Origin: Candidatus Kapaibacterium sp.
GTDB taxonomy: Bacteria; Patescibacteriota; Patescibacteriia; UBA9934
Length of the DNA: 64,000 nucleotides
Direction: 5' to 3'
Assembly (NCBI GenBank): GCA_044350705.1
Contig: JBILHA010000001.1
Location: 113,809 to 177,808, forward strand
The notes below the pieces were generated by a model, which was not told the origin of the DNA, did no database searches, and saw only the letters and a program-made list of their open reading frames with translations. Below are positions 11,125 through 41,147 of the stretch, in pieces; the first letter of the stretch is position 1, and the number at the start of each line of letters is the position of its first letter. The position numbers and the translations under genes were made by a program.

Positions 11125-13042
11125 GCCTTCGTGGTCACGTAGGACGCGTGTCTTTTTTTGGATATTTTTTAGTGTTTTTTTCGTTTGTCTTTCCCTTCTT
11201 TTCGTGTGGGCAGGTATTTTAGGCACGCGCGTTTTTGCCCTCTACCAATCTACGCAAGCTCTTCAGCGATCCATGCAAGAGTATGATCTTTCTTCAGCTG
11301 AGATGGCACTTGAAGATGCGGGAGGGCATATTCAACGCATTGAACGTACGCTTTCTTGGACTCCTTTTTTCTCTGCGCTTCCGTATATCGGGGAAACATA
11401 TACTGCAACATTGCAAACGCTTCATGTGGTTGGTGACGGTATAGATATCGCTCAAGATGCGCTTCGTGTTGCTTCTTCGGTTACGGGAGCCATTGATCGT
11501 GCGAGTGTTGGAACCTCTTTTACTTTCCTGGAAGATCCTCGTCCGTATTCTGATTTTTCTTCTGCCGAACGCCGTGCTGCACTGAATGCTTTTGCGCAAA
11601 GCGCAACAGAACTTCGGGCGCTTCGTGTAGCCCTTGAGCTTGTGGGCCAAGATATCGCACGCATTGATGCTCAGGCGCTTCGTGTGCCAGAGGCGATTAC
11701 TTTGATGGAGCGTGCACAGGAAGAGATACCTCGTTTTATTACCGCGCTTGAGATTCTTGCACCGTTTGCTTCTGTTGCACGGGAGTTTTCTGGCGTTGAC
11801 GCAGAGACTCAATTTCTCATTCTTTATTTAAATAATGCCGAGCTTCGTCCTGGAGGAGGTTTTATTGGTGCATACAGTCTCATGAATATTCACGAAGGGG
11901 ATATTGTGAGTTTTACCACCGAAGATAGCTACACCCCTGATTTACTCGTGGAGGGAAGGGAAGATTATTATGTCGAGCCCCCCCTTCCCATCAAGCAATA
12001 CATCGGGATTCCTGAGTGGTATTTTAGGGATTCTTCTTGGTCTCCAAGTTTTGCGCAGACTGCCCAAGACGCCCGTCATCTTTTGCGGCAAGAGCTTGCG
12101 TTTGGCAGCCAGCCTGTTCCTGATATTCATCATGTTGTTGGCATCACTCCTGATTTTATTGAAGATGTTTTAGATCTTGTAGGGCCTATTTCTGCAAATA
12201 ACGTAACCTATACCTCCTCGAACATTTATGAATTGCTGCAGTATCAAGTGGAGCAGGGATTTGTGCATGAAGGTATTGCATACGAAGATCGGAAACAGGC
12301 GCTAAAAATTGTTTCTGAGACTATGGTTGATCGGCTCATGGAAATGTCCCCTTCATCGTTTCTTGATTTCTTCACGCTTTTTGAAGATGAATTGCAAGAA
12401 AAGCATGTTGTGCTTGCGAGCATGGATGAGTCCACCCAGGCTCGTCTTGAAGATGCGGGATGGTCAGGAACCGTACCGTACTCTTCTGTAGATGATTTTA
12501 TTTTCTTTGTTGATGCGAATTTGGGAGCTTTAAAAACGGACCCTGTCGTACGTCGTCATGTTATCTATCATCTCGAACCTGCGAATGGAGGATATCGCGC
12601 TACGACCACTATTACGTATACGCACACCGCGACCAAGACGGATTATAAAACAGGAAAATATCGTACCTATGCGCAGCTTTTTGTGCCGTTTGGGTCTTCT
12701 TTGGTGAGTACTTCGGGGGCTACGAGTGATATTGTGCGGGGTGACTCTCTTGGTATGACGAGTTTTGCTACGTTTTTAGAGGTTGATTTGGGAGAGCAGA
12801 AGACCATCTCTTTTACTTATGACCTTCCTTCTCCTACGGTAAATGCGGTGAAGCGGGGAGTCTATGCTTTCGGGGCATTTAAGCAGGTTGGTGCCGGGGA
12901 TAACCTTTTGACCCTTGACCTTGATTTTGGTACGAACCTGGTGGCTGCAGAGCCCCCAGAAGATCCGGATGATTACGGAGATACGTCTTTTGAATATACG
13001 TTAGAACTTATTACGGACAAGATTTTCCGGGTTATTTTGTAG
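11096..13042 (+). CDS. DUF4012-like extracytoplasmic protein (N-terminal TM anchor)
   Basis: Long ORF. Start moved to the ATG at 11096 (MEHEQKS...), which overlaps the GT2 stop by 29 nt. A TM helix follows (IFFSVFFVCLSLLFVWAGI). Resembles the DUF4012 proteins linked to glycan clusters. Confidence 0.5.
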   Translation: MEHEQKSHPKPSWSRRTRVFFWIFFSVFFVCLSLLFVWAGILGTRVFALYQSTQALQRSMQEYDLSSAEMALEDAGGHIQRIERTLSWTPFFSALPYIGETYTATLQTLHVVGDGIDIAQDALRVASSVTGAIDRASVGTSFTFLEDPRPYSDFSSAERRAALNAFAQSATELRALRVALELVGQDIARIDAQALRVPEAITLMERAQEEIPRFITALEILAPFASVAREFSGVDAETQFLILYLNNAELRPGGGFIGAYSLMNIHEGDIVSFTTEDSYTPDLLVEGREDYYVEPPLPIKQYIGIPEWYFRDSSWSPSFAQTAQDARHLLRQELAFGSQPVPDIHHVVGITPDFIEDVLDLVGPISANNVTYTSSNIYELLQYQVEQGFVHEGIAYEDRKQALKIVSETMVDRLMEMSPSSFLDFFTLFEDELQEKHVVLASMDESTQARLEDAGWSGTVPYSSVDDFIFFVDANLGALKTDPVVRRHVIYHLEPANGGYRATTTITYTHTATKTDYKTGKYRTYAQLFVPFGSSLVSTSGATSDIVRGDSLGMTSFATFLEVDLGEQKTISFTYDLPSPTVNAVKRGVYAFGAFKQVGAGDNLLTLDLDFGTNLVAAEPPEDPDDYGDTSFEYTLELITDKIFRVIL

Positions 13043-13051
13043 CCATATTCT

Positions 13052-14056
13052 ATGCTCGGAAAAAAGATCGGTATTGACCTTGGTACTACCACGGTTCTCG
13101 TCTATGTTCCTAAACGAGGCATCATTATCAATGAGCCATCTGTTGTTGCGATTTCAAAAAATGATCGAGTGGTATTGGCGGTGGGTAAAGAAGCGAAAGA
13201 TATGCTTGGCCGTACGCCTGATACCATTGTGGCGCGTCGGCCATTGCGTGATGGAGTGATTGCCGATTATCGTACGACGGAAGCCATGCTTCGCTATTTT
13301 ATCAACAAGGCACTCGGTGGTTTTCGTTTATTTAAACCTGAGGTCATGATTGCGGTTCCTGGCGGTATTACCTCTACCGAGCGGCGTGCAGTAGTTGATG
13401 CAGCACTGATGGCCGGCGCACGTGTTGCGTACGTTATTAAACAGCCGGTTGTTGCGGCAATTGGTGCGAATATTCCCATTGGAAGCCCAAATGGTCACAT
13501 GATTGTAGAGATTGGAGGAGGGACGTCAGAGATGGCGGTGCTCTCTTTGGGGGGTATTGTTGCTTCTTCCTCTGTGCGTATTGGAGGAGTGAAATTTGAT
13601 CATGCGATCATGGAGTTTGTACGCCGTACATATAACGTTGCTATTGGTGAGCGGACTGCTGAGGAGATTAAGATTGCGGTTGGGTCTGCGCTCTTTATGC
13701 CTGACAAGCTTCGTACAGAAGTGAAGGGCCGTGATATGATTACTGGTTTGCCAAAAATTATTGAAGTAACGAGTGATGACGTTACTGAGGCACTTCAGTC
13801 GCATTTGGAGGATCTCATCGTTGCCCTTAAGATTGTGCTTTCTCAGACCCCTCCCGAGCTTGCTGCTGATGTTATGGATAAAGGCATCGTCCTTTCCGGG
13901 GGAACGAGCCAGCTCCGTAATTTGGATCGCTTAATCGCCGATGCAACGGGAGTCCCTGCATATGTTGCAGATGAACCTCAGCTTTGCGTTGCGCGAGGAA
14001 CTGGTTTGGCTTTAGAAAATCTTGATGCCTATAAGCGGAGTTTGTTTTACACCTAA
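13052..14056 (+). CDS. mreB: rod-shape-determining actin homologue MreB
   Basis: MLGKKIGIDLGTT...GGGTSE...LSGGTSQLRNLD, the canonical MreB/actin-fold motifs. Confidence 0.9.
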   Translation: MLGKKIGIDLGTTTVLVYVPKRGIIINEPSVVAISKNDRVVLAVGKEAKDMLGRTPDTIVARRPLRDGVIADYRTTEAMLRYFINKALGGFRLFKPEVMIAVPGGITSTERRAVVDAALMAGARVAYVIKQPVVAAIGANIPIGSPNGHMIVEIGGGTSEMAVLSLGGIVASSSVRIGGVKFDHAIMEFVRRTYNVAIGERTAEEIKIAVGSALFMPDKLRTEVKGRDMITGLPKIIEVTSDDVTEALQSHLEDLIVALKIVLSQTPPELAADVMDKGIVLSGGTSQLRNLDRLIADATGVPAYVADEPQLCVARGTGLALENLDAYKRSLFYT

Positions 14057-14067
14057 GCTTCAGAAGC

Positions 14068-14781
14068 ATGTTCGAGCGTTTTTCCCATCATCTTGCTACT
14101 GTTCCTGACGGTGGCTCTTGGCTCTTTTTAGGTGCGCCCCGTGAAGAGGTGTTTGCCCGTGTTTTTGCTATTATACAAGGTCATTTGGGGGTTTCTGCCG
14201 AGGCCATTACTGTGCATCCGGATGTCCATGTAGTTCGTGCTCCAGAAGAGAAGACTGCTACCGGGAGACAGCGCGTGCTTTCAGTTGAGGATATTCGTGA
14301 TGTTCTTGAGCGTCTTTCGCTCACTGCTCTCACAGGAAAAAAGTATCTCTTTCTTCCTGACGCTGATTGGCTTAGTGAATCTGCTCAGAATGCGCTTTTG
14401 AAAATGATCGAAGATCCGGCTGGAAGTTTAGTTGCATGTTTTTTTGCAGAGGATATTTCGCGCATTGTTGCTCCTTTGCGTTCTCGTCTTTTTCTTTATC
14501 GTCTCGCGCCTTTAGCCCAGCCGGTTTGGCAGGGAAGTTCAGAGAATGATCCGGAGATTTTTCTTGCTTCATCGATCAGGAATCGGCTTTCGCTTATTGA
14601 GCGCTTGGTTAAAGAAGGTAAGGGAGATGTTGATTTGCTTTTGTCTTGGCTCATGGTTTTGCAGCGTATTGCAGCCGAAAGAGGAGAGGGGAAGCTTTTT
14701 CTTGCGTCTGTTACGGCCTGGGATGATATCCGAGCACAGGGGAATATTCACGCAGCTCTTACGCGTATGGTATTTGCGTAG
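14068..14781 (+). CDS. holB: DNA polymerase III delta'-like clamp-loader subunit (degenerate)
   Basis: Size, position and AAA+-like lid region fit delta', but no intact Walker A motif is visible. Confidence 0.4.
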   Translation: MFERFSHHLATVPDGGSWLFLGAPREEVFARVFAIIQGHLGVSAEAITVHPDVHVVRAPEEKTATGRQRVLSVEDIRDVLERLSLTALTGKKYLFLPDADWLSESAQNALLKMIEDPAGSLVACFFAEDISRIVAPLRSRLFLYRLAPLAQPVWQGSSENDPEIFLASSIRNRLSLIERLVKEGKGDVDLLLSWLMVLQRIAAERGEGKLFLASVTAWDDIRAQGNIHAALTRMVFA

Positions 14782-14834
14782 GCAGTGTAGCGTTTACCGT
14801 TCTTTGTTTTTTATACGGTATAATCTCTCCATCT

Positions 14835-15890
14835 ATGCGTTCTCTTCGTTTTTCTGCAGCACTTGCTGCGGCACTTGTACTTCTTGGGGCGGGATGCTTG
14901 GGGGGAGGTTCTTCGCCAAAATCTTCTACCGGTGGAATGTGGGTTTCTCAAAATGCGGGAGGGAGTTGGACGGCGATGCATGCTCTTCCAAGTGCTGCAG
15001 GAGTAGGAAGTATGGGGAATGTAGATATCCTCTCTTTTGCGGTTGATCCTTCGGATTCGTCAGCATTATATGCCGGTTCGAAGGGTTCCGGCCTCTTCGT
15101 TTCCTTAGATGGAGGCGCAACATGGACGCGGCCAGAGGAAAAAGAGGTTTCTTCGGGAACGATTCTTGATTTGGCGGTATCAAGTAATGATGTGTGTACG
15201 TATTATGTTTTGAAAGCGGACCGTCTCATGAAAACCACAAGCTGTGGCCGCGAATTTGATACGCAAACGTACGTAGAAGGCCGTACGAATGAGGCGCTTA
15301 CTACATTTGCGCTTGATTGGTATAACCCGAATATTCTTTATTTGGGCACGACCGCAGGGGAGATCTTAAAGTCTTCTGATGGTGGAGAAACCTGGACTGC
15401 GGCTTACTCGGTGAAAGATTCTATATCTGCGCTTGAGATAAGCAATGCGGATAGTCGTTTTGTCATTGCGGGAGGACAGCGTACCGGTTTGTATCGTTCA
15501 GAAGATGGGGGAGCAAATTGGATTTCTTTAGAAGATGCGCTTGATGATATGCGAGGTGCTGATCGGGTATATGCACTCGCTCAATCAGGAGATGGAACGC
15601 AGCTTGTTGCTTCAACGAAGTATGGACTCCTTACCTCAGGGGATAAGGGCCTTACGTGGAAAGGAGTTTCTCTTCTCACGGCATCAGGAGATGTGACTAT
15701 TAGTGCACTTGCTGTTGACCCTGATGAAAAAAATACGATTGTATACGGCACTCCTACTGCCCTTTACGTTACGACCGATGGCGGTTCCACGTGGTCAACT
15801 GAAGAATTGCCGACTTCTCGCGCAGCTTCGGTATTGCACGTCATGGAAGATGGCTCTTTTTGGCTCGGGGTACAAACCTTGGAAGATTAA
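14835..15890 (+). CDS. BNR/Asp-box repeat beta-propeller lipoprotein (Ycf48-like)
   Basis: Signal peptide with lipobox (LLGAGC). Six S-x-D-G-G-x-T-W Asp-box repeats. Confidence 0.65.
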   Translation: MRSLRFSAALAAALVLLGAGCLGGGSSPKSSTGGMWVSQNAGGSWTAMHALPSAAGVGSMGNVDILSFAVDPSDSSALYAGSKGSGLFVSLDGGATWTRPEEKEVSSGTILDLAVSSNDVCTYYVLKADRLMKTTSCGREFDTQTYVEGRTNEALTTFALDWYNPNILYLGTTAGEILKSSDGGETWTAAYSVKDSISALEISNADSRFVIAGGQRTGLYRSEDGGANWISLEDALDDMRGADRVYALAQSGDGTQLVASTKYGLLTSGDKGLTWKGVSLLTASGDVTISALAVDPDEKNTIVYGTPTALYVTTDGGSTWSTEELPTSRAASVLHVMEDGSFWLGVQTLED

Positions 15891-15947
15891 GGACATATTT
15901 GACGCAAAAAATCCTCCCTGTACACTAAGGGGAGGATTTTTTGTCTT

Positions 15948-16490
15948 ATGCCTCAACTCTCTGAAACTAAAAAGTTATTTACTCAAGCGGTAGATCATCT
16001 TGCGGCTGAACTTTCTACTCTTCGTACGGGACGTGCAACTCCTGCAATTCTTGATCACGTGCAGGTCGAAGCCTATGGAACCTATCAGCCTATTAAGGCG
16101 CTTGCTTCGCTTTCTACTCCTGATAGTAAAACGCTTCAGATTGATCCTTGGGATAATTCAGTAGTAAAAGCTATTGAATCTGCGATTGTTGCTTCTGACA
16201 TTGGGATTATGCCTATTGTGGATGGAAAGACCATTCGTTTGGTTATGCCGATGATGACTGAAGAGAATCGCAAGAGGCTTGTGAAGGTCGCTAGTGAAAA
16301 GCTGGAGGATGCGCGTGTTGCGGTTCGTCGTATACGCGAAGAAGTGCGAAAGGATATTGCGAAGCAGACCGGTGTGGGGGAGGATGCAATTCGTAAAGAG
16401 CAGGAGGATTTGGATAAAATGACGAAGGAATTTGTTGCTCAAATTGATGCTTTAGGGCAGAAGAAGGAGGAGGAAATTATGAAGGTATAA
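15948..16490 (+). CDS. frr: ribosome recycling factor
   Basis: 180 aa, conserved RRF sequence throughout (LRTGRATPAILDHVQVEAYG...). Confidence 0.9.
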   Translation: MPQLSETKKLFTQAVDHLAAELSTLRTGRATPAILDHVQVEAYGTYQPIKALASLSTPDSKTLQIDPWDNSVVKAIESAIVASDIGIMPIVDGKTIRLVMPMMTEENRKRLVKVASEKLEDARVAVRRIREEVRKDIAKQTGVGEDAIRKEQEDLDKMTKEFVAQIDALGQKKEEEIMKV

Positions 16491-16582
16491 AAAACCCGAA
16501 TTTTTGTTTTTTCTTCCACATGCTTTTCGTGACTTTTCTTGAATTTTGCTTATACTTCGTTTGATTTAGAAATTAATATTTT

Positions 16583-18178
16583 ATGGAAAAATCTTTTTAT
16601 TCTCGTGCGCGTTTCCTTTCCGCATCATTTTTCGTTGCGGCATTTTTTTTAGGTGGTTCATTTCTTATTTCTTCATTTGCACAAGCAGCCGTACCTTCGG
16701 GATTTATAATCGGATCTTATGGAGATGCTGATAATGACGGTACCGTCGATCACATCATTGTAGGTATTGATAGCGCTGGAGAAGATCTTACCACGTGCAA
16801 TGTTTCTGCTGGTGAAGTTGCATCTGATTGGACGTATAACGGAGGTGCTATTGGTGGAACTTTGGGAAGTGCTACGTGTGTTCTCATTGGAGAACCGGCT
16901 ATTACTTTTCAAATCGTTGGAGCGAATGAAGGGGTCACGGGTGCTGATCCTGGGCCGACCATTTCTTATGCAAACGGAGATGCCGATAACTCTATTGCTA
17001 ACGCAAGCGGAAGCCTTGCGGGTGGCGGACCGCTTGAATTAAATGATTATGCTGCACCGTTTCTTTTACAAACATCCATTAACGATAATGCAATTCTTGG
17101 TCGTTACGATGATGTTATGTTCCTTTTTTCTGAAAACGTAAGCCAACTCGATATTTCTCTTTATCTTGGCTCTACACTTCGATATACCGTTGATGATGCT
17201 TCTCCTTATGTTGTTTGGATGGATGAAAAATCTTTTAACCTTAACTTTCCTCCGCTTTCTGGGGGAAGCTATACGCTTCAGGATTTTGCCTTTGAAGATG
17301 GTATGGGAAATCCAGGAGTAGTAGCTATTAGCGATCCTCTTCCTTTTCGTGTTCGCTCTTTGGGCGATGATGATGCCGCTCCGGAGACTTCGACTCCAGA
17401 TTCTTCCGTTGCAGTTCTCACTCCTGCCGAAGGTGAATGGATTTCGAGCGGTTCGGTTGTAGATGTTACGTGGTCTTCTTCTGTGGAGAGTGCTTCTTAC
17501 GCAACACTTTCTTACTCACTTGATAACGGATCGACGTGGATGGAAATCGTTCGCAACACCTTGAACGACGGTGCATACGCATGGATGACTCCTTCGGTTG
17601 AAGCTGACGAAGCAATGGTGAAAGTAGTTCTTACCGATCTTGCTGACGAAATTGCCTCTGATACTTCCGAAGCATTTGTTCTTTCGTCTGCTGAAGCCTC
17701 CGATGATGTTCAGGCTAATATTGATGGCGTTGTTGCAGGATCCTTTATTAAGACTTCCGGATCTCCCACAATCTATTACGTCGACGAAGACATGAGCCGC
17801 CGTCCCTTCTTTGATGCTCAGACGTACTTTACCTACGAAGACGATTTTGATGCCGTGACCGAGGTTTCGAGTAATACGCTTGCAAAGTTCTCCATTGGCG
17901 CACCGATGATGCCAAAGCCAGGTGTGGTTTTGGTCAAGATCCAGTCAGTTGCAAAGGTGTATATGGTAGAAGAAGCTGCAGATGGCTCCTATGAACTTCG
18001 CTGGATTACGAGCGAAGAGGTCGCAGAAGATATGTTCGGTTCCCAGTGGTCTTCTTATGTGCTCGATGTAGACGCGACTCTTTTTACGCGCTACGAGATG
18101 GGTGATGATGTCACCGATGCGGATGACGAAAGTGTAGATCGTGACATGATGAAAATGCGCATGCATTTGCATGAGTAA
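16583..18178 (+). CDS. secreted repeat protein, paralogue A
   Basis: Signal peptide. N-terminal domain shared with paralogue B (ISYANGDADNSIANASG), a central ASYATLSYSxDxGSTW domain, and a C-terminal 136 aa identical to paralogue B. Confidence 0.7.
   Translation: MEKSFYSRARFLSASFFVAAFFLGGSFLISSFAQAAVPSGFIIGSYGDADNDGTVDHIIVGIDSAGEDLTTCNVSAGEVASDWTYNGGAIGGTLGSATCVLIGEPAITFQIVGANEGVTGADPGPTISYANGDADNSIANASGSLAGGGPLELNDYAAPFLLQTSINDNAILGRYDDVMFLFSENVSQLDISLYLGSTLRYTVDDASPYVVWMDEKSFNLNFPPLSGGSYTLQDFAFEDGMGNPGVVAISDPLPFRVRSLGDDDAAPETSTPDSSVAVLTPAEGEWISSGSVVDVTWSSSVESASYATLSYSLDNGSTWMEIVRNTLNDGAYAWMTPSVEADEAMVKVVLTDLADEIASDTSEAFVLSSAEASDDVQANIDGVVAGSFIKTSGSPTIYYVDEDMSRRPFFDAQTYFTYEDDFDAVTEVSSNTLAKFSIGAPMMPKPGVVLVKIQSVAKVYMVEEAADGSYELRWITSEEVAEDMFGSQWSSYVLDVDATLFTRYEMGDDVTDADDESVDRDMMKMRMHLHE
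17771..18178 (+). repeat. 408-bp perfect direct repeat, copy 1 (3' end of paralogue A)
   Basis: Identical nucleotide-for-nucleotide to 19526..19933 when read directly. Identity ends exactly at the stop codon. Confidence 0.9.
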
Positions 18179-18192
18179 GTGATACTGTAGGC

Positions 18193-18230
18193 AAAAAAGA
18201 CGCTTTTCTAAGCGTCTTTTTTCTTTTTCA
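18193..18230 (+). terminator. rho-independent terminator
   Basis: AAGACGCTT-TTCTA-AGCGTCTT followed by a T-run. Confidence 0.7.
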
Positions 18231-18304
18231 TCCACAGAAAATACAGGGAGGAAATTTCTCTTGGGTTATACTCAAGCAAATTCTTTGAGGATTGGTTTTT
18301 CTTT

Positions 18305-19933
18305 ATGGAACATATTTCACGCTATCCCTCGTTGAGCACGCTCTTTGCTGGCGGTCTCATTCTTGCGGCCACCGTATTTTTGGGAGCTTTGGTTTTTCAG
18401 CCCACGGCAGCACATGCGGTTGCTCCGAACGGGTTTACTTCCGTAGAATATCGAGATTCTAATGCTGATGCCGCTATTGATCAGATCGTGGTCGTTGTTA
18501 ATGGAGGAGAGGCGCTTACTGCATGCGTAGTTACTTCCGGTGAGCTTACCAGTGACTGGTCTTATACCGGAGGATCTTTTGGAGGATCCATTGCTTCCGC
18601 AACGTGTAATACGGGAACGGCTACGATTACTTTTACGTTAACCGGCACTACTGCAAATTTGACCGGCGGTGGCACGGCGCCAACCATCTCATATAATAAT
18701 GGAGATACTGATAATTCCATTGCGAATGCGAGTGGAAATTTGGGAGGTGCAGGACCTACAAGTGCGACTGACGATGCAGGCCCTGTTCTTATTTCCTCTT
18801 CTCCTTATAGCCTTCAGCAACGTGTGAATCGTTGGTCTACCATTACGCTTACTTTTTCTGAAACCATTTCTTCTTTTGGAGATACGGTCTCTCCCTCAAC
18901 GATCAATACTACCAATTCTCATGCTACAGGTGTTACTACGGTTCGCTCGCTTGGACCTTGGCCATCCGGACAGATTACTTATACTATAGGGACTGCTTCG
19001 GATGCCGCTGCAAATACTTTTGCGGGAGTTAAGACAGGGGCTTCTGGTCTTGCAAACCCGCTCGTTTTCTCTGTAGCCTCTCAAGATAGTGATTCCGTTG
19101 CAGCTGAGGAGACATCAGGATCGGTCAGTATTCTTTCCCCTGAGGCTGATGACTCTTTGGATGCTGATAGTGCGGTAGAAATTTCCTGGTCTTCAGATGC
19201 TGAGGGCGCTTCTTATGCAACGCTTTCCTATTCAGAAGACGGAGGTTCTACATGGGAAATCATCGCAAGCAACACGCTTAATGATGGTTCATACATGTGG
19301 ACCGTTCCACACCTTCAGTCCGATGAGGTTATGGTGAAAATTGCCCTTACCGATTTGGCGGAAGAGCTTGCTTCTGACACTTCTGGGGCATTCACGGTGT
19401 GGTATTACGATGAAGATAACTCAGATGACTGGGAGGATGAAGATGGAAATCCTGATGCATATCCTGAGCGTGAAATTGATGGCATTGTTTCCGGAGACTT
19501 CATCAAAGTAGCAGGATCCACGACGATCTATTACGTCGACGAAGACATGAGCCGCCGTCCCTTCTTTGATGCTCAGACGTACTTTACCTACGAAGACGAT
19601 TTTGATGCCGTGACCGAGGTTTCGAGTAATACGCTTGCAAAGTTCTCCATTGGCGCACCGATGATGCCAAAGCCAGGTGTGGTTTTGGTCAAGATCCAGT
19701 CAGTTGCAAAGGTGTATATGGTAGAAGAAGCTGCAGATGGCTCCTATGAACTTCGCTGGATTACGAGCGAAGAGGTCGCAGAAGATATGTTCGGTTCCCA
19801 GTGGTCTTCTTATGTGCTCGATGTAGACGCGACTCTTTTTACGCGCTACGAGATGGGTGATGATGTCACCGATGCGGATGACGAAAGTGTAGATCGTGAC
19901 ATGATGAAAATGCGCATGCATTTGCATGAGTAA
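18305..19933 (+). CDS. secreted repeat protein, paralogue B
   Basis: Signal peptide, same domain order as paralogue A, plus an acidic insert (YYDEDNSDDWEDEDGNPDAYPE). Confidence 0.7.
   Translation: MEHISRYPSLSTLFAGGLILAATVFLGALVFQPTAAHAVAPNGFTSVEYRDSNADAAIDQIVVVVNGGEALTACVVTSGELTSDWSYTGGSFGGSIASATCNTGTATITFTLTGTTANLTGGGTAPTISYNNGDTDNSIANASGNLGGAGPTSATDDAGPVLISSSPYSLQQRVNRWSTITLTFSETISSFGDTVSPSTINTTNSHATGVTTVRSLGPWPSGQITYTIGTASDAAANTFAGVKTGASGLANPLVFSVASQDSDSVAAEETSGSVSILSPEADDSLDADSAVEISWSSDAEGASYATLSYSEDGGSTWEIIASNTLNDGSYMWTVPHLQSDEVMVKIALTDLAEELASDTSGAFTVWYYDEDNSDDWEDEDGNPDAYPEREIDGIVSGDFIKVAGSTTIYYVDEDMSRRPFFDAQTYFTYEDDFDAVTEVSSNTLAKFSIGAPMMPKPGVVLVKIQSVAKVYMVEEAADGSYELRWITSEEVAEDMFGSQWSSYVLDVDATLFTRYEMGDDVTDADDESVDRDMMKMRMHLHE
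19526..19933 (+). repeat. 408-bp perfect direct repeat, copy 2 (3' end of paralogue B)
   Basis: Identical to 17771..18178. Confidence 0.9.
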
Positions 19934-19947
19934 CGAGGTTTATAAAG

Positions 19948-19988
19948 ACCCCTCATCGCCCCTGTGGAGCGATGAGGGGTTTTGTTTT
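19948..19988 (+). terminator. rho-independent terminator
   Basis: ACCCCTCATCGC-CCCTGTGGA-GCGATGAGGGGT followed by TTTGTTTT. Confidence 0.7.
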
Positions 19989-40847: not shown

Positions 40848-41147
40848 ATACTCATCTCATCTGGGACAAAATTACCAGAAAAAATCCCATTTCTCAATTT
40901 GAGGCAAGGATAAGTTCGGAGTTGCTTACCCTGAAAAAATAAGGTATTATTACCTCACAACACCTAAACCCGACCCCGTGGTTGGGCATGGTTAAACACC
41001 TACACGACTGAGACGGTCTTCCGACTGGCACTTATTCGTGTAGGGCCCTATTCCGCAAGGATAGGGGGTTGTTGCCGAAAGGCGCAGCCGTCAGCTCGGG
41101 AGACCTTTTGAGTTTCCCGACATTTATTAACCCCTACACGAATACCT

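Follow-up and report, generated by a model that had tools for sequence, protein, structure and literature searches.

Our analysis of a 64-kb stretch of contig JBILHA010000001.1 (GCA_044350705.1; all 64,000 nt, hereafter the window) shows that two adjacent, co-oriented genes, A and B, which stand in tandem in the order frr, A, B, glyS and encode paralogous secreted proteins, have diverged along most of their length and are identical to the base over their last 408 nt. This homogenisation is recent, has an independent counterpart in a more distant relative, and falls in a locus that varies between strains and that different assemblies of one strain resolve differently. Very probably, A and B are old tandem paralogs whose 3′ end underwent gene conversion very recently, after the host, which belongs to the Patescibacteria and is Uhrbacteria-like, had split from its nearest sampled relative, and whose shared C-terminal module would act as an envelope anchor. 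The locus offers a clean and datable case in which recombination has changed surface proteins in a bacterium that is uncultured and ultra-small; the surface biology and episymbiotic attachment of such bacteria are poorly understood.

An identical 3′ end in two diverged paralogs

Counting back from the two TAA stop codons, A and B first differ at nucleotide 409. A preliminary description of this DNA, made from the sequence, had given the identical tract as 408 nt and 136 codons; the length in nucleotides stands, with every position matching, but the tract comprises 135 codons plus the stop codon (residues 408-542 of B), and the figure of 136 counts the stop. Just upstream of the tract the identity between A and B falls to ~67%, and over the 200 nt past the stops only 57 positions match, which is the random level and agrees with the earlier statement that identity ends at the stop codons. 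The tract is the sole direct repeat of at least 40 nt in the window, and its two copies lie 1755 nt apart. The proteins are 54% identical overall and 43% identical (164/382) upstream of the tract, in keeping with the ~40-60% identity previously noted for the N-terminal and middle regions.

The silent sites separate the tract sharply from the rest of the genes. Nei-Gojobori estimates from a protein-guided codon alignment of the 382 aligned codons upstream of the tract gave a proportion of synonymous differences (pS) of 0.67, a synonymous divergence (dS) of 1.69 and a non-synonymous divergence (dN) of 0.56 between A and B, the synonymous sites being saturated, whereas the tract itself contains no difference over 81.7 synonymous and 323 non-synonymous sites. 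Where upstream codon pairs encode the same amino acid, the same codon is used in only 48% of them; at that rate, 135 identical codons out of 135 have a probability of ~1e-43, and chance is therefore excluded as the source of the identity.

A sister strain dates the event. Blastn aligns the public scaffold L002, which stems from the sample of GCA_009925725.1, colinearly with the window, at 98.3% identity on the left, where the match closes with frr (16486), and at 96% on the right, where it opens within gene B; a sliding comparison together with an alignment of the breakpoint places the true resumption of identity at ~19550-19590, ~25-60 nt into the tract. What lies between these points in the window (A in full, the spacer and roughly three quarters of B) is replaced: L002 has there a gene that encodes at least 738 aa and contains extra repeats, then a spacer of 630 nt, then a B′ whose N-terminal domains differ. 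The C-domain pair of L002 is not homogenised (76% over 315 nt by blastn; 284/402 or 71% over the tract region). One exact patch of 66 nt is common to both L002 C-domains, with a chance expectation of ~3e-6 (0.76^66 x ~250 start positions), and this suggests, as far as the sequence can tell, an older and shorter conversion. The L002 copy of B matches the window tract at 396 of 408 positions (97.1%), and at all 12 differing sites the two window copies are alike, so that the homogenisation is later than the split between the window strain and L002. Since the B tract adjoins the downstream flank that is conserved between the strains, B is the probable donor, and the conversion probably ran from B to A.

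The same phenomenon is found in L004 (GCA_964459775.1), a more distant relative whose contig begins within the 3′ end of the upstream paralog. This 3′ end is 100% identical to that of the next gene over all 564 nt available, a length that is a lower bound (at least 564 nt) set by the contig start, and the identity runs ~10 nt past the stop, after which the downstream regions diverge into different terminators. The L004 tract is only ~72% identical to the window tract and is longer, which makes it an independent event. Gene order also differs in L004, where the A-like gene adjoins glyS rather than taking the first position. The window tract starts 51 nt into the C-terminal module of A (hidden Markov model, HMM, bounds) and ~18 residues into the C-terminal structural domain of B, not at its edge, while the L004 tract starts well before the module; the tract edges are thus recombination edges and not the edges of a functional domain.

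A scan of species-representative genomes returned 38 loci, mostly labelled Candidatus Uhrbacteria or Patescibacteria, of which 12 carry two C-domain copies. For nucleotide comparison we used 11 tandem pairs from other genomes, L002 included, and found a long identical tract in none of them: seven align at 66-82% (blastn) and four give no alignment. A sister clade (L047, L049, L050 and L005) has the order frr, short paralog (285 aa), long paralog, glyS, and the C-domains of three of its pairs are ~60% identical. In a neighbour-joining tree of C-domains, the copies of the window and of L004 pair by genome and those of L047, L049, L050 and L005 group by position. The A-B spacer is homologous to the spacer between the sister-clade paralogs (local alignment to the L047 spacer, z = 13.4) and the locus is syntenic in relatives, showing that the tandem layout is ancestral. 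A recent conversion or homogenisation, as proposed in the preliminary description, is accordingly borne out by a dS of 0 against ~1.7, by the unhomogenised copies of L002 and by the grouping of the tract by genome. The concerted evolution of the C-terminal module that was suggested with it does not hold as a sustained process and was rejected after the comparison of tandem pairs: because the other pairs have diverged and their C-domains group by position, conversion here is episodic. A metagenome scan yielded four loci only, too few for a population series.

As an observation in its own right, the upstream paralog of the sister clade is short (278-285 aa; L047 6040-6897, L049 7009-7866, L050 3068-3904) and consists of a signal peptide, one Ig-like (immunoglobulin-like) domain and the C-domain, without the two N-terminal beta-sandwiches.

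The comparison with other assemblies also showed differences in junctions and in copy number, with a segment replaced in L002 and gene A alone in L051, a further assembly of the window strain described below. The exposed parts of both proteins have been exchanged completely between the window and L002, with the left breakpoint directly after frr and the right one in the most conserved block of the B C-domain. The signal peptide, later domains, C-domain and flanks of the sister-clade long paralog remain colinear at ~80-82%, and the first beta-sandwich of this paralog (L047, L049, L050) comes in at least three unrelated sequence types that have been swapped between species. Taken with the gene order of L004, these exchanges suggest that homologous recombination via conserved ends is the general way in which this locus changes, and the 408-nt tract seems to be one recent product of it.

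The C-terminal module and the architecture of the proteins

Searches of A and B against Pfam and NCBIfam gave sub-threshold Ig-like matches only (Big_5, Kre9_KNH) and no match in the last ~150 aa. A full-length AlphaFold (AF2) model of B (mean predicted local distance difference test score, pLDDT, 75) begins with a hydrophobic helix (residues 10-30) that has an A-x-A site behind it, and continues with three beta-sandwiches (40-155, 157-258 and 272-368), a disordered acidic linker (371-387) and a C-terminal module (390-520), and Foldseek with this model retrieved generic tandem Ig/FnIII adhesion proteins. Both A and B are predicted to be Sec-secreted, with three Ig-like beta-sandwiches as a stalk that is variable and exposed, and with the acidic linker joining it to the conserved module; the domain order that the two had been described as sharing is correct by both the domain scan and the AF2 model. 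An Asp-box-like S-x-D-x-G-x-T-W motif occurs in the third beta-sandwich as SYSEDGGSTW and SYSLDNGSTW (19190-19240 of B, 17480-17530 of A) and sits inside the Kre9/KNH-like Ig domain.

Structure prediction of the C-domain, a step that the preliminary description had proposed, gave a confident double repeat: modelled alone, the module reaches a pLDDT of 94.6 and shows an internal duplication of a ~60-aa beta-beta-beta-alpha-beta-alpha unit. A profile of the module searched against 1.84 billion proteins found 6080 cluster representatives, 2059 of them at E ≤1e-30, and the C-domain of gene A scores 232 bits in the C-domain HMM search. In this family the module is mostly C-terminal and sometimes N-terminal, and a protein may carry as many as 11 copies of it. 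In a sample of 79 members, the partner domains include Ig-like domains, FG-GAP, TSP3, laminin-G and beta-propellers, which is an adhesin-like extracellular architecture.

The best structural matches of the module, weak as they are, point to the type VII secretion system (T7SS) protein EccB. The ten best Foldseek matches of the module in the PDB are all EccB, and P0048, a family member with 11 repeats, matches the EccB models PF05108 and TIGR03919 (~1e-10, 39-40 bits). Sequence searches of the PDB with the C-domain profile, a single-repeat profile and P0048 returned nothing significant. The EccB repeats of mycobacterial T7SS are described as ~55-aa units of four strands and two helices that resemble the wall-binding phage protein PlyCB, and the authors propose, without experimental support, that they bind peptidoglycan (PMC4769845). 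As modelled, the module would resemble these repeats in the ~55-60-aa unit, the 4-stranded sheet with two helices, the tandem arrangement and a putative association with the cell envelope. It differs in that A and B possess neither the EccB core domain nor an N-terminal transmembrane/ESX context nor T7SS neighbours, and in that the similarity of the window proteins lies below significance, wall binding being a proposal even for EccB. The module is therefore described here as EccB-repeat-like and is not placed in the EccB family. Two other candidates, a designed beta-propeller and PQQ repeats, were the top PDB matches of the single repeat and were discarded as spurious, sharing a short 'G-x-VY-x-I-x-x-G' motif only. 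A scan of viral contigs for the C-domain found no relative, which lends no support to the idea of a phage-lysin-type wall-binding domain.

The fold of the module, its position and its partner domains suggest that it would hold the protein non-covalently on the cell envelope, and we flag this widespread C-terminal module, for which Pfam and NCBIfam have no model, as a candidate envelope anchor. The nearest functional analogue of A and B is the slpA/slpB pair of the Lactobacillus acidophilus group. In these S-layer pairs the N-terminal region varies, and two repeats of ~65 aa make up a conserved C-terminal region of ~125 aa that binds the wall (PMC3666127). Unlike these proteins, A and B show no SLAP match in the C-terminal region (Pfam, NCBIfam), and an S-layer role for them is putative.

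Probable conversion, alternative readings and assembly behaviour

Gene conversion between tandem bacterial paralogs is well known and includes classic cases of concerted evolution. The A/B event is, mechanistically, very probably ordinary ectopic gene conversion between tandem paralogs: like the classic cases, it shows a sharp tract of identity in otherwise saturated paralogs, which ends with the homology and groups by genome within the tract only. It departs from them in being episodic, since most relatives keep diverged, position-grouped copies, and in its host, an uncultured member of the Patescibacteria. A literature search found no description of this family, or of its conversion behaviour, in Patescibacteria. 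After the split from the nearest sampled relative, homologous recombination between the C-domain coding regions, presumably of the RecA type, would have copied one 3′ end onto the other, probably that of B onto A. The conversion tract would begin in the conserved core of the C-domain and run to the stop codon, where the homology between the paralogs ends, and the same conserved block may serve as the right-hand crossover point when the rest of the locus is replaced from strain to strain. Direct repeats of 408 nt at a distance of 1755 nt would also make the locus prone to losing one unit, whether in the cell or in the assembler.

Public data hold this one strain in three resolutions, namely the 509-kb contig of the window (A and B), L051 (A only) and a 190-kb JGI contig. 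In L051 (JGI 3300042340, contig Ga0453917_0000001, 462 kb, 346241-355836), A is followed directly by glyS; the sequence is 100% identical to window 12583-18178 and then joins position 19934 onward, exactly one 1755-nt repeat unit being missing; either the assembly collapsed here, or recombination between the direct repeats has really deleted the unit without leaving a scar. In the 190-kb contig, the first base corresponds to window position 18081, which lies 98 nt ahead of the stop of A, and the sequence runs on through the spacer, B and glyS. We infer that a true repeat broke the de Bruijn graph (k = 99) at its right edge here, and the contig demonstrates that independent reads contain the junction of tract, spacer and B. 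At least three contigs contain B-specific sequence, and the contigs of the relatives L001, L003, L004 and L043 also start or stop within the locus. The earlier warning of an assembly-collapse hazard was well founded, as L051 lacks exactly one repeat unit and another contig breaks 98 nt inside the repeat. With two genes, one gene and a contig break on record for the same strain, comparisons of gene content between metagenome-assembled genomes (MAGs) would be misleading at this locus.

A recent structural event instead of conversion is an unlikely explanation of the tract; it would be either unequal crossing-over or duplication via the C-domain, or the import of a foreign segment that reaches from A across the spacer into the 5′ part of B and has its right crossover in the B C-domain, and one of the two 3′ ends would then be a new duplicate. 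It would suit the L002 breakpoint, which lies only ~25-60 nt inside the tract, the complete replacement of 16487 to ~19550 between strains and the position of the A-like gene beside glyS in L004, and L051 indicates that loss of one unit via the repeat is possible, or at least can be made by an assembler. However, the spacer and the two-gene layout are ancestral, so that a new duplication is unnecessary, and an imported segment would need its own two 3′ ends to be identical already; on present data the outcome would be the same as that of conversion, as would the enzymology.

That an assembler merged similar copies, or copies from different strains, into a chimeric or consensus 3′ end, or built a false tandem, is quite improbable, even though the assemblies of the same population differ at the locus (A and B; A only; a break inside the repeat) and the contigs of four relatives begin or end there. 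An independent contig, which begins exactly 98 nt ahead of the stop, contains the tract-spacer-B junction, L004 repeats the phenomenon in a tract that has its own sequence and length, and B-specific sequence comes from several contigs. Tandem pairs with a homologous spacer are ancestral in relatives, and because these relatives have two genes with such a spacer the two-gene state is very probably real.

Programmed variation, for example by a silent cassette or inversion switch of the Lactobacillus slpA/slpB kind, a shufflon or a diversity-generating retroelement (DGR), is highly improbable here. It would be in character for surface proteins whose exposed parts are hypervariable and whose ends are conserved, and at this locus the type of N-terminal domain has been swapped from one species to another. 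Both genes are complete and co-oriented, each with its own promoter-like region and terminator, and, unlike slpA/slpB, the pair lies on one strand with no inversion segment and no silent copy; flanking inverted repeats were looked for and none were found. The neighbouring genes listed are housekeeping genes, with no recombinase or reverse transcriptase among them, the rest of the window being unscanned for reverse transcriptase. The template and variable copies of a DGR differ at adenines, whereas the A/B repeat has no mismatch over 408 nt. Finally, strong purifying selection on an essential C-terminal domain, an alternative raised in the preliminary description, would agree with the C-domain being the most conserved part of the family (L047 and L049 are 90.7% identical there and 82% in the flanks), but selection at the protein level cannot erase synonymous differences, the sister-strain ortholog already differs at 12 nt in the tract and other tandem pairs are at 65-82%, and the absence of any change at 81.7 synonymous sites refutes it.

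Several observations weigh against a recent conversion from B to A in proteins that carry an EccB-repeat-like anchor. An assembly of the same strain, L051, carries gene A only, and the exact 100% identity of the tract could in part reflect consensus smoothing of two near-identical copies. The direction from B to A, though probable, has the contiguity of the B tract with the conserved flank as its sole basis, and of the 12 differences between the window and the L002 copy of B, eight fall within 60 nt of the tract start, so that more than one recombination event may be superimposed. Concerning the module, the Foldseek matches of the window C-domain to EccB are weak (E 0.04-0.8, TM ~0.3), PF05108 and TIGR03919 gave no match at E up to 1, whether to A, to B or to the C-domain by itself, and the profile match to EccB1 in the PDB is marginal (E ~0.2).

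A bolder and rather doubtful extension is that the 408-nt repeats form a natural on/off switch, in which cells with A and B coexist with cells from which B has been deleted without a scar (the L051 haplotype), that the conserved C-domain block is a recombination handle by which surface cassettes are gained, lost and swapped between strains, and that the double-repeat module is a general envelope anchor of the Patescibacteria radiation. Since the mechanism of conversion is already known, what this locus adds is an unannotated, widespread, anchor-like module, a locus structure that varies between strains and a documented inconsistency between assemblies.

Features of the locus and further observations

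The features of the locus are collected in Table 1. The terminators of A and B show no sequence relationship to each other, and the preliminary description was right to call them divergent, as both are strong and unrelated.

Table 1. Coordinates of the two paralogs, the identical tract and associated features in the window
Feature	Position	Strand	Basis or remark
Gene A	16583..18178	+	Open reading frame (ORF), 531-aa secreted protein; exact protein P0007 in public assemblies
Gene B	18305..19933	+	ORF, 542-aa paralog with the architecture of A; exact protein P0001
Identical tract, A copy	17771..18178	+	408/408 against the B copy; probable conversion recipient
Identical tract, B copy	19526..19933	+	408/408 against the A copy; probable donor, adjoins the strain-conserved downstream flank
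C-terminal double-repeat (EccB-repeat-like) module of A	17720..18175	+	hmmsearch, A2 profile
C-terminal double-repeat (EccB-repeat-like) module of B	19472..19930	+	AF2 model, Foldseek
Strain-variable segment	16487..19550	+	No colinear high-identity match in L002 (blastn, sliding identity, right-breakpoint alignment); left flank 98.3% and right flank ~98-99% identical
A-B spacer	18179..18304	+	Terminator of A and promoter-like region for B
Terminator of A	18193-18222 (hairpin, in the A-B spacer)	+	Strong, z = -4.8; hairpin plus U-run
Terminator of B	19945..19988	+	RNA fold of -29.4 kcal/mol, z = -6.4, then U-run
Promoter-like site 5′ of A	16529..16556	+	Consensus scan, 9/12 matches; weak, consensus-only match

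A motif TTC(A/T)TCCACA(G/T), placed 17-29 nt upstream of a TATA(C/A)T box, precedes each paralog (16510-16556 and 18225-18271 in the window) and is also present in the L047 and L002 spacers; it may be a common promoter or operator element of the paralogs. An Rfam search found no RNA family in or near A or B and none in the L002 spacer, and thus gave no indication that the tract contains a functional RNA. The 630-nt spacer between the L002 paralogs (L002 9177-9806) contains a 169-aa ORF on the minus strand, for which a DDE-transposase hint at E 0.019 lay below the cutoff, and a mobile element in this spacer was not accepted.

Many TPA MAGs with a Patescibacteria-type locus (L006-L009 and others) are titled 'uncultured Gammaproteobacteria bacterium', which looks like a mislabelling. 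Beside the locus, a conserved gene at 14835-15890 encodes a BNR/Asp-box protein similar to F510_1955 (102 bits, below the cutoff). Further along the window, positions 40961-41089 on the plus strand match the LOOT RNA (RF03000) at 52.3 bits, above the gathering score of 46.4.

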